Assembly (NCBI RefSeq): GCF_965641715.1
Contig: NZ_OZ282453.1
Origin: Escherichia coli
GTDB lineage: Bacteria; Pseudomonadota; Gammaproteobacteria; Enterobacterales; Enterobacteriaceae
Reading direction: 5' to 3' (one strand)
Length of the DNA stretch: 64,000 nt
In this document: piece after piece, positions 9,972-15,212 of the stretch
Position numbering within the stretch: position 1 is the stretch's first letter
How the letters are laid out: every line of letters starts with the position of its first letter
Made by a program: the position numbers and the translations under genes
Notes under the pieces: generated by a model
Told to the model about the DNA's origin: nothing
The model's input: only the letters and a program-made list of their open reading frames with translations
Databases searched by the model: none

Positions 9972-12900
9972 ATGGCTTCGACAAATGCGCATCAAATAAA
10001 AAATAATGATCAAAACTCTTTATGTGGTCTGGGTGACAAAATACGCCGCCTGACCGCCGGAGTTTGTTTATTTACACAAATTTTTTTCCCCGTCATGGCG
10101 ACGGCACAAAATGTGGTACATGCTAAACCTCAGACGACAGTTTCATCTGCCCCCCCTCTAATAGAAAATAATACGGTGCCTTACACGCTTGGTGCGCTGG
10201 AATCAGCGCAAAGCGTTGCTGATCGATTCGGTATTTCACTGGAGGAGCTTCGTCGTCTTAATCAGTTCCGTACTTTTGCTCGCGGCTTTGATAACGTGCG
10301 CCAGGGTGAGGAACTGGATGTTCCGGCAACAACCTCGCAGAAAAGCCATGAGCAACAAAATGCCATACCGCCTGCGAATGGCGAAAACACGCTGGAGAAT
10401 CAAATAGCCAGCACCTCGCAGCGAGTTGGCACTCTGCTTTCACAAGATATGAATAGTGAGCAGGCCAGCGGCATGGCGCGTGGTTGGGCGTCTTCAGAAG
10501 CCTCTGGCGCGATGACTGATTGGTTAAATAACTTTGGCACTGCGAAAATCTCTCTGGGTGTGGATGAAGATTTTAGCCTGAAAAATTCGCAATTCGACTT
10601 CCTGCATCCGTGGTATGACACACCTGATTATCTGCTCTTCAGCCAGCATACCCTTCACCGAACAGACGATCGTACCCAGATCAACACCGGTTTGGGCTGG
10701 CGTCATTTCACCTCCAGCTGGATGTCAGGCATCAACCTGTTTTTTGACCACGACCTGAGCCGCTATCACTCCCGCGCAGGGCTTGGCGCAGAATACTGGC
10801 GTGATTATCTGAAGTTGAGCAGCAACGCTTATATCGGCCTGACCGGCTGGCGTAGCGCACCAGAATTGGATAACGACTTCGAAGCCCGCCCGGCCAACGG
10901 CTGGGATTTACGCGCGGAAGGCTGGTTACCTGCCTGGCCACAACTGGGGGGAAAACTGGTCTATGAACAATACTATGGCGATGAAGTGGCGCTGTTTGAC
11001 AAGAACGATCGCCAAAGTAATCCCCATGCTATTACCGCGGGCCTCAACTATACCCCCTTCCCGCTTCTGACTCTCAGTGCGGAACAGCGTCAGGGGAAGC
11101 AAGGTGAAAATGACACACGTTTTGCCGTTGATCTGACCTGGCAACCCAGCAGTTCAATGCAGAAACAGCTTAACCCGGACGAAGTGGCCGGACGGCGCAG
11201 TCTGGCCGGTAGTCGTTATGACCTGATTGATCGCAACAACAACATCGTTCTGGAATATCGCAAGAAAGAGCTGATTCGCCTGAGTCTGCTGGATCCGGTG
11301 AAAGGAAAGTCTGGAGAAATAAAACCGCTGGTTTCCTCGATACAGACCAAATATGCCCTGAAAGGCTATAACATCGAAGCCGCTGCGCTGGAAGCTGCCG
11401 GAGGTAAAGTCAGCACGTCTGGAAAAGATATCACGGTCACGCTGCCAGGTTACCGCTTCACTAACACTCCAGAAACCGATAATACATGGTCGATAGACGT
11501 TACCGCCGAGGATGTAAAAGGTAACCTGTCACGTCATGAACAAAGCATGGTCGTCATTCAGGCTCCGACATTAAGCCAGAAAGATTCTCTGTTATCCGTT
11601 AATCCGCTAACCGTGGCTGCAGATAAAAAATCGACTACCACATTGACCGTTACTGCACACGATTCCGATGGAACCCCGGTGCCGGGGCTGGCGCTGCAAA
11701 CCCGCAGTGAAGGCGTTCAGGATATCACCCTGTCTGACTGGACAGATAACGGTGATGGTAGTTACACACAGATACTGACCGCCGGAACGACATCAGGTTC
11801 AGTAACACTGACGCCGCAAATTAACGGTGAGAGTGCGGTAAAAGAATCCATCGTCGTTAATATCGTCCCTGTTGTCTCATCCCGCGACCATTCATCAATA
11901 ACAATTGATAACGTATCGTATTATGCCGGAGACGACATCAAGGTTAGGGTGGAACTGAAAGACGAAAGTAATCAACCGGTTGCATATCAAAAAGAGGAAT
12001 TGGTAAAAGCCGTTACTGTCGAAAACAGCAAACCTGGCGCCACGATTGTCTGGCACGAAGAGCAGCCGGGGGTTTATACCGCGAATTATCCGGCCCATAA
12101 GCAAGGGACTGCACTAAGGGCACAACTTAGCCTTCACAACTGGAATGCTCCGCTGCAATCGCATATTTATAACATTGAGGCAAACCAGAATAAGGCTCGC
12201 GTCGCCACATTATCAGCGACAAATAATGACGTTTACGCCGATAAAAAGACATTTAATACCCTCACTATCAACGTCACTGATGAGAGTGATAATCCCCTGA
12301 TAAATCATCAGGTCACCTTTAAGAATGAAAAAGGAAGCGCGGAATTTGTCGAACCGCCGCAGCAAAATACGGATGCATATGGTGTTGCCACAATCAACAT
12401 GGTAAGTCAGGTTGCGGAAGAAAATACGATTAGCGCCACGCTGCCAAATGGTTTCTCACAACGGATAATTGCGAAATTCGTTAGCGATTCGAGTACGCCA
12501 AAATTCAAACAACTGGTTGCCGATCCAGATACCATTATTGCTGGCAACAGCCAGGGCAGTACTCTGACCGCCATCGTCACAGACTTTCATAACAACCCGT
12601 TAAAAGATATGAAAGTGAATTTTGTGGCACCTGGTGGCTCGCAACTGGACAACACGACCGCCACAACAGACCAGTCCGGTATTGTGCGGGTGCACCTGAC
12701 CAGTTCAAAAGCTGGTAGCTATTCCGTCGATGCCTCGCTTGAGGTGGATAAAAATATTCACCAGTCGGTCACGATCACCGTGGTCCCAAACAGGGAACAA
12801 TCGGTAATGACCTTGAATGCCGGGTCGGGCAGTGCGATCGCTAACAATACAAATACCGTTACCCTGACTGCCAGTGTGAAAGATGTTTATGGACACCCGT

Positions 12901-15212: not shown

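Follow-up and report, generated by a model that had tools for sequence, protein, structure and literature searches.

We analyzed a 64,000-nucleotide (nt) stretch of an Escherichia coli contig (NZ_OZ282453.1, assembly GCF_965641715.1), hereafter the window, which carries a large adhesin gene, iatD, between yjiJ and the convergent gene kptA. The gene, its 5' region, and the parts of its product are located as follows, in window positions.

9762..9971, + strand: iatD 5' intergenic region, 34% GC, with a Shine-Dalgarno sequence, GGAAGG, at 9961-9966
9972..15212, + strand: iatD, inverse autotransporter adhesin IatD, an intact open reading frame (ORF) of 1746 amino acids (aa) with an ATG start
9972..10106, + strand: predicted extended Sec signal peptide, residues 1-45, from inspection of the translation and a hydropathy scan
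10150..10156, + strand: run of seven C (C7 homopolymer) within codons 60-62 (GCC CCC CCT), where strains differ by frameshifts, from strain comparison
10173..10328, + strand: divergent LysM domain, residues ~68-119, periplasmic, from homologue matches, the core of an AlphaFold2 (AF2) model, and fold matches in the PDB
10413..11240, + strand: inverse-autotransporter beta-barrel, Pfam residues 148-423, PF11924 IAT_beta at 361 bits (cutoff 22.3)
11280..11576, + strand: first passenger Ig-like domain, residues ~437-535, beside the barrel, from the span of an NCBIfam intimin alignment
11586..14597, + strand: array of 10 Big_1/Invasin_D3-type Ig-like domains, residues 539-1542, from a repeat hidden Markov model (HMM) and Pfam
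14598..15209, + strand: tip module, residues 1543-1746, an invasin D4-like Ig domain and a C-type-lectin-like, D5-like domain, from AF2, Foldseek, and profile searches

The translation of 9972..15212 shows zero internal stops over 1746 codons, and the Shine-Dalgarno sequence lies 5 nt 5' of the ATG. A 100% identical protein in NCBI (P0003) bears the name IatD ("inverse autotransporter IatD"), and the Prokaryotic Genome Annotation Pipeline (PGAP) label at the yjiJ/kptA locus in RefSeq E. coli genomes is likewise "iatD: inverse autotransporter IatD". The best 120 protein database matches are all from E. coli, with lengths of 1746 to 1747 aa and identities of 99% to 100%. The gene was named by Goh et al. 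2019 (mSphere, PMC6714894), whose iatD is EcSMS35_4876 of strain SMS-3-5 (5241 bp). The window protein is identical to that IatD at 1704 of 1746 positions without gaps (97.6%), marginally lower than the ">98%" that the same paper quotes across its 7 strains. Since an identical protein already carries the name and the SMS-3-5 protein aligns gaplessly at this identity in the same gene order, the gene is a known one: judged by its sequence, it is iatD, encoding an intimin/invasin-type adhesin of the type Ve (inverse autotransporter) class. A preliminary description of this DNA had proposed a 1746-aa inverse-autotransporter adhesin and had named the described E. coli inverse autotransporters as its proper comparison. 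The single uninterrupted frame agrees with that proposal, and the comparison identifies the protein as IatD itself. Neither a frameshift or stop nor a missing barrel, the observations that would have spoken against it, was seen in this copy.

The earlier survey reported iatD from 6% of the 126 complete genomes it covered and from 10% of ECOR strains (PMC6714894). Among 5426 complete E. coli genomes, we find it in about 12% (636 to 638); at least 80% of the iatD query is carried by 636 of them, and the 5' region was matched in 638. Two other assignments were considered for the gene. IatC was rejected because the score of the NCBIfam model for the IatC N terminus, 1125 bits, is below its cutoff of 2400. 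YeeJ was set aside as well; yeeJ DNA is ~77% identical, and only across the part encoding the LysM domain, the barrel, and the first Ig domain (window 10170-11967).

The N terminus of IatD has the features of an extended signal peptide, with a KIRR n-region, a hydrophobic core at residues ~27-42 (15-residue hydropathy up to 1.77), and then A-T-A|Q. The segment that follows was matched by the LysM family in all 11 of the homologous N-termini that were aligned (best 2.4e-9). Its AF2 model contains a beta-alpha-alpha-beta core with predicted local distance difference test (pLDDT) values of 81 to 88, and the best PDB fold matches of this core are almost all LysM domains, including the periplasmic LysM of intimin, 2mpw. 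A fold search with the whole N-terminal model gave weak E-values (best 8.5e-3), since 60% of that model is disordered linker, and we use it as supporting evidence only. The LysM call is thus supported by family evidence and modeled fold and not by an above-threshold Pfam score, so that the LysM segment, the least secure element of the preliminary description, stands as a divergent member of the family. The intimin/invasin-type barrel, proposed in the same description, was recovered directly by the profile search. By sequence, residues 185-430 match the barrels of invasin (4e1t, E 1.5e-81) and intimin (4e1s, E 1.1e-65) in the PDB, and all Ig domains of IatD lie C-terminal to the barrel.

The passenger comprises 12 Ig-like domains followed by a lectin-like domain, a rod of ~13 domains in total. 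In the NCBIfam intimin model, IatD residues 152-530 align to intimin 173-549, and from this alignment we infer that residues ~437-535 may be equivalent to intimin D00. An iterated repeat HMM resolves ten Ig repeats of ~100 residues next to it, with scores of 64 to 103 bits each and pairwise identities of 11% to 38%. Pfam reports Big_1 in 8 stretches of the passenger (399.6 bits) and Invasin_D3 in 9, in keeping with the long Ig-like array described earlier; Invasin_D4 at residues 1564-1624 scored just below its cutoff. No tandem repeats were found in the DNA of iatD, and instability in the number of Ig repeats was ruled out for that reason. By sequence search, residues 1255-1713 match D1-D5 of invasin (PDB 1cwv, E 4.9e-24).

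The closest structural relatives of the tip are found in the same protein. An AF2 model of the tip (pLDDT 96.3) was matched by Foldseek to invasin 1cwv with a query TM-score (TMq) of 0.82, a root-mean-square deviation of 2.5 A, and an E-value of 3.6e-12; the next matches were intimin (1f00 and 2zqk; intimin E 1.5e-6) and, lower down, snake-venom C-type-lectin-like proteins. An exhaustive search with the last 204 residues returned 265 relatives, 36 of which were aligned (A1), and the resulting profile matches 1cwv residues 301-474 with an E-value of 2e-33. In this alignment, the columns of Cys1660 and Cys1742, which align with the cysteines of invasin D5, show little or no variation. A search of the indexed protein database with just the 204-aa tip yielded only 2 fragments, which was uninformative, and IatD itself has no match to a Pfam lectin domain.

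With a tip closest to invasin D4-D5 in both sequence profile and fold, and with the positions of the D5 disulfide cysteines conserved, IatD could be supposed to act as an invasin, binding beta1 integrins and promoting uptake into host cells in the manner of the Yersinia protein. Further, Asp1665 (D1665) lies five residues after Cys1660, and the aligned invasin 1cwv has an Asp four residues after the matching Cys. We take the latter to be the integrin-binding Asp911, with Asp811 presumably a second such residue. However, the tip is only 24% identical to invasin, the loop after its first Cys differs from invasin in length and sequence, and IatD did not bind extracellular matrix (ECM) in the published assays (PMC6714894). 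The nearest tip relative outside IatD among the 265 is only 47% identical, so the specificity of a relative cannot be carried over to this tip. Integrin-mediated invasion is, in our view, a very improbable function for IatD.

Comparison with characterized systems places IatD nearest to its SMS-3-5 namesake, which has the same length (1746 aa, 5241 bp), the same yjiJ-kptA locus and upstream block, and the same domain plan. The two differ by 42 substitutions, and SMS-3-5 reads S-P-S-P where the window reads S-A-P-P, so that the C run is interrupted there. IatC and YeeJ share the architecture, and IatD residues 12-838 are those aligned to the IatC N-terminal model; in contrast, these proteins are encoded at other chromosomal loci, are longer (2934 and 2359 aa, respectively, in SMS-3-5; PMC6714894), and have a different tip. 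Yersinia invasin resembles IatD in its barrel (4e1t), in the alignment of the last five domains of IatD to D1-D5, and in the superposition of the tip on D4-D5, whereas it has 4 Ig-like domains rather than 12. IatD also carries a LysM domain, which Y. pseudotuberculosis invasin is not known to have. Intimin of enteropathogenic and enterohemorrhagic E. coli (Eae; 4e1s, 1f00, 2zqk, and 2mpw) shares LysM, barrel, Ig rod, and lectin-like tip. However, IatD scores 357 bits against an intimin model cutoff of 1400, its rod is much longer, and iatD lies outside the locus of enterocyte effacement with no Tir partner nearby.

By analogy with intimin and invasin, we therefore favor, at a probability of roughly 0.93, a reading in which IatD would follow the standard type Ve pathway to become an Ig rod with an invasin-like lectin tip that serves in surface attachment and biofilm formation. 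The Sec signal peptide (residues 1-45) would carry IatD to the periplasm, where the divergent LysM (~68-119) may hold the N terminus at the peptidoglycan. The predicted 12-stranded barrel (~185-430) would enter the outer membrane with the help of the beta-barrel assembly machinery, and the passenger (437-1746) would be threaded outward through IatD's own barrel, as the homology to intimin and invasin suggests. The extracellular rod of 12 Ig-like domains would measure ~45 to 50 nm, scaled from invasin. At its end, the invasin D4-D5-type Ig domain and C-type-lectin-like tip, presumably stabilized by a Cys1660-Cys1742 disulfide, would form the probable binding surface. Transcription of iatD and of the convergent kptA may end within their shared 123-bp spacer, which contains a hairpin and a repetitive extragenic palindromic (REP) element. 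The ORF, the domain plan, the folds of tip and LysM, the identity as IatD, and the haplotype described below come from this analysis, and surface location and biofilm formation come from the literature; the secretion pathway, rod length, disulfide, use of the tip for binding, and native expression are what we infer.

The published experiments agree with this pathway. Domains predicted for IatD in PMC6714894 are LysM, barrel, Big_1 repeats, and a C-type-lectin cap, and SMS-3-5 IatD expressed in K-12 under control of isopropyl beta-D-thiogalactopyranoside (IPTG) was located at the surface and gave strong biofilm (PMC6714894). Surface display and biofilm formation on overexpression are the extent of the published IatD phenotypes, and a virulence role, which the preliminary description associated with large adhesins in general, is not among them.

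Several observations weigh against the favored pathway or against its operation in nature. The phenotypes on record were obtained with IPTG-induced overexpression in K-12 rather than with the native promoter, and the overexpressed SMS-3-5 IatD caused no autoaggregation and bound no ECM (PMC6714894). The LysM score of IatD itself (15 to 16.4 bits) is under the Pfam cutoff of 20.9 bits, and the NCBIfam profile search returned no IatD-specific model, its best result being the subthreshold IatC N terminus (1125 bits against 2400). A promoter scan of the iatD 5' region found a sole promoter-like match, at 9776-9805 (9/12), and such matches are no commoner there than in shuffled sequences. The low GC content of this region (34%) is compatible with silencing. 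Since ~45% of iatD copies, those of the O157:H7 allele, are frameshifted, the gene is also dispensable in at least one successful lineage.

Taken together with the absence of iatD from about 88% of genomes, the AT-rich and promoter-poor 5' region, the need for an inducible promoter in all published work, and the O157:H7 pseudogene could mean that iatD is a cryptic, silent relic that has stayed intact through chance or recent descent, goes unexpressed in ordinary circumstances, and contributes nothing in nature. Laboratory silencing is usual for E. coli adhesins, and it does not imply that they are functionless. More directly, the 5.2-kb ORF has remained uninterrupted and, across distant backgrounds, aligns gaplessly at 97.6% identity, and many hundreds of full-length 1746-aa copies are present in public data, which indicates purifying selection. 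We therefore consider a silent relic unlikely and retain the reading of IatD as a surface adhesin secreted by the type Ve pathway.

The poly-C run in codons 60-62 is the only G/C homopolymer of at least 7 in the 64-kb window and lies just after the signal peptide. In O157:H7, iatD is flagged as a pseudogene by PGAP, and one extra C (C8) leads to a stop at codon 67. The exact O157-type C8 82-mer is present in 284 genomes, about 45% of all iatD copies. An exact C6 80-mer was found in 5 genomes (MS7163, O39:NM F8704-2, and the O145 strains RM9873-C1, RM9154-C1, and RM8995-C1), and both C6 copies that were inspected are flagged as frameshifted by PGAP. Other O145 strains have C7, and some of these nearly match the C6 strains in chromosome length. 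We also sampled 60 evenly spaced genomes of the 638 matching the iatD 5' region: 27 have the C8 length, 2 are frameshifted C6 copies, and 31 are in frame (two of these lack 1 nt 5' of the ATG, and one could be aligned only in part). In the alleles of SMS-3-5 and TUM2330, other bases break up the run (TCT CCG TCC CCT). As far as the strain sequences indicate, the poly-C run is a recurrent point of iatD inactivation.

A homopolymer of this kind might act as a switch. Because the run is the sole one of its length in the window, sits inside the 5' coding region, and sets the iatD reading frame, slippage from C7 could turn the gene off (C6, C8) and back on (C7), making iatD a phase-variable or hypermutable contingency adhesin; all three tract lengths were seen, and O145 isolates include both C6 and C7. 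However, a single ancestral change passed on clonally could account for C8 in O157:H7, and no C7 copy was found within O157:H7 in the 60-genome sample. The five C6 alleles occur sporadically, each through loss of one base, and are candidates for homopolymer errors in long-read assemblies, where single-base deletion in a homopolymer is the commonest residual error. Seven bases are also short for a classical contingency tract, and the run is interrupted in some alleles, such as those of SMS-3-5 and TUM2330. E. coli adhesins are usually switched by invertible promoters or Dam methylation, and, to our knowledge, on/off switching of a type V adhesin by a homopolymer is uncommon in this species. We regard a phase-variable iatD as quite unlikely, although it would be compatible with the type Ve pathway favored above. 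Similarly doubtful is the fuller form of this idea, in which the C7 run would be a real slipped-strand switch and IatD phase-variable, or recurrently and reversibly inactivated, on an ancient haplotype with the EspX6-like gene and the ~19%-diverged yjiK-yjiJ segment. PMC6714894 mentions neither frameshifts, O157, nor phase variation, and a literature search on iatD and its O157:H7 copy brought up nothing else of relevance except one review.

The gene does not stand alone in its departure from the K-12 gene order. It belongs to a longer block with the following features.

4816..15367, strand not assigned: variable haplotype block that replaces a 2.2-kb K-12-type yjiK-yjiJ segment and contains an espX6-like gene, yjiK', yjiJ', and iatD
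5154..7406, + strand: espX6-like pentapeptide-repeat gene, 750 aa, 35% GC, Pfam Pentapeptide at 113 bits
7673..8515, + strand: yjiK', SdiA-regulated domain protein, a diverged allele, PF06977 at 306.9 bits
8583..9761, + strand: yjiJ', YbfB/YjiJ-type major facilitator superfamily transporter, a diverged allele, PF06779 at 461.8 bits

The flanks of this block are 97.2% (1-4815) and 98.2% (15368-26930) identical to the K-12-type locus. Within it, only 7679-9739 (yjiK-yjiJ) aligns to the K-12 type, at a uniform 80.7% (79% to 84% per 500 bp), and there is no K-12-type counterpart for 4816-7678 (the espX6-like gene) or for 9746-15367 (iatD and its flanks). At the protein level, YjiK' is 83.6% identical to K-12-type YjiK, and YjiJ' is 89.6% identical to its K-12-type counterpart; DNA likeness in yjiJ stops at 9745, 16 nt before the stop codon. 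The junctions lie within the 3' ends of ytiA, yjiJ (9745/9746), and kptA (15367/15368). In the K-12-type strains examined, the stop codons of yjiJ and kptA are 12 bp apart. The preliminary description was therefore right that the adhesin gene is missing from the K-12 order and lies between yjiJ and kptA. What it took for an insertion between these genes, however, is a 10.5-kb replacement that begins and ends inside neighboring genes and includes a ~19%-diverged yjiK-yjiJ segment.

The two forms of the interval are sharply distinct in the species. The yjiK-yjiJ segment is bimodal in the 5426 complete genomes, 636 having it at 95% identity or more and 4740 at ~81%, with none between, and the number with the window-type segment (636) equals the number in which 80% or more of the iatD query is present (636). 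The same four-gene block is present in all 8 other iatD-positive genomes that were opened, and the order yjiJ - iatD - kptA is found in SMS-3-5, O157:H7, 88-3493, TUM2330, JX21CE8, O145, O39:NM, strain 135, and CB7453 as well as in the window. Thus, iatD is not a clean insertion but the last gene, on the right, in a 10.5-kb alternative haplotype that occupies the ytiA-kptA interval. A divergence of ~19% in shared genes is about that between different enterobacterial genera. Because the haplotype is sharply bounded and diverged to this extent, its sequence speaks for either acquisition from a diverged lineage through homologous recombination in the flanks or an old, long-maintained polymorphism, rather than for simple insertion.

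The espX6-like gene at the left of the block is absent from K-12-type loci, and its O157:H7 orthologue is annotated as the type III secretion system effector EspX6. Its length is 2253 bp here and ranges from 1974 to 2277 bp in other iatD-positive genomes (PGAP); these differences among strains suggest variation in repeat number. A scan of species-representative genomes for iatD orthologues found nothing beyond partial identities of 59% to 81%, a weak negative because no near-identical E. coli locus came back as a positive control. The two best loci of that scan (L005 and L006) are on short contigs of metagenome-assembled genomes labeled Collinsella sp. and Bacillota bacterium, and encode IatD-like N-termini with 59% and 81% aa identity. 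Neither contig has homologues of yjiK, yjiJ, kptA, or espX6, and one has a different upstream context. They are probably contamination from Enterobacteriaceae in binning, since the labeled hosts are implausible for an outer-membrane protein.

At its 3' end, iatD faces kptA across the shared spacer.

15230..15259, no strand assigned: perfect hairpin with a 12-bp stem between convergent iatD and kptA, arms 15230-15241 and 15248-15259
15284..15311, no strand assigned: REP-type imperfect palindrome of 28 nt, GCCTGATGCG...CTTATCAGGCCTA, from its dispersed copies and its likeness to canonical REP
15336..15920, - strand: kptA, RNA 2'-phosphotransferase, 194 aa, PF01885 at 162 bits

Both elements had been noted in the preliminary description as a hairpin plus REP shared with kptA, and both are present in the spacer and conserved in other iatD-positive strains. 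The 136-nt stretch 3' of iatD folds at -45.2 kcal/mol (z = -5.9). On the + strand, no T tract follows the hairpin, which was not called as a terminator by the scan, and terminator-like matches in that scan were fewer than in shuffled sequences. The palindrome at 15284-15311 has the REP form, with the head and tail GCCKGATGCG...CTTATCMGGCCTA, and a 74-nt stretch containing it is repeated at unannotated intergenic sites in 5317 of the 5426 genomes, with up to 6 copies per genome. A canonical REP (GCCGGATGCGGCGTGAACGCCTTATCCGGCCTA) at 22312-22344 has its head and tail in common with 15284-15311.

The likeness of kptA to the K-12 type begins at 15368, so that its last 10 codons belong to the variable block. 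In this 3' end (15336-15370), codon 184 is TGG here, which adds 10 more codons to give 194 aa, whereas it is TAG in O157:H7, O145, 88-3493, and JX21CE8, and in the K-12 type TAA follows directly after W184. In O157:H7 PNUSAE146131, kptA has lost 1 nt from a T run (window 15718); kptA of NU14 is frameshifted. With this polymorphic 3' end and these lesions, kptA is often damaged.

Elsewhere in the window, two large adjoining ORFs are encoded on the - strand at 42302-44533 (743 aa) and 44530-49275 (1581 aa), with overlapping stop and start codons. Neither had a Pfam or PADLOC match, and both are hypothetical in the closest genome. Neighbors of the pair are an HNH endonuclease, the remnant of a restriction enzyme, and a CP4-like island (RelE/CopG, CbtA/YeeU, RadC, DUF932, GTPase, and WYL genes), and at least 80% of 35200-60000 is common to only 43 of the 5426 genomes. 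Since SMS-3-5 carries Zorya II and other defense-type genes at the same nanM-side site, this site looks like a defense hot spot with an undescribed gene pair.

The gene iatD is already known, and its linkage to a haplotype, together with its frameshift-prone poly-C run, adds modestly to what is found in PMC6714894. For annotation, the identification is useful: this strain carries an intact, presumably functional iatD, while ~45% of the copies in complete genomes, those of the O157:H7 lineage, are inactivated at the poly-C run.

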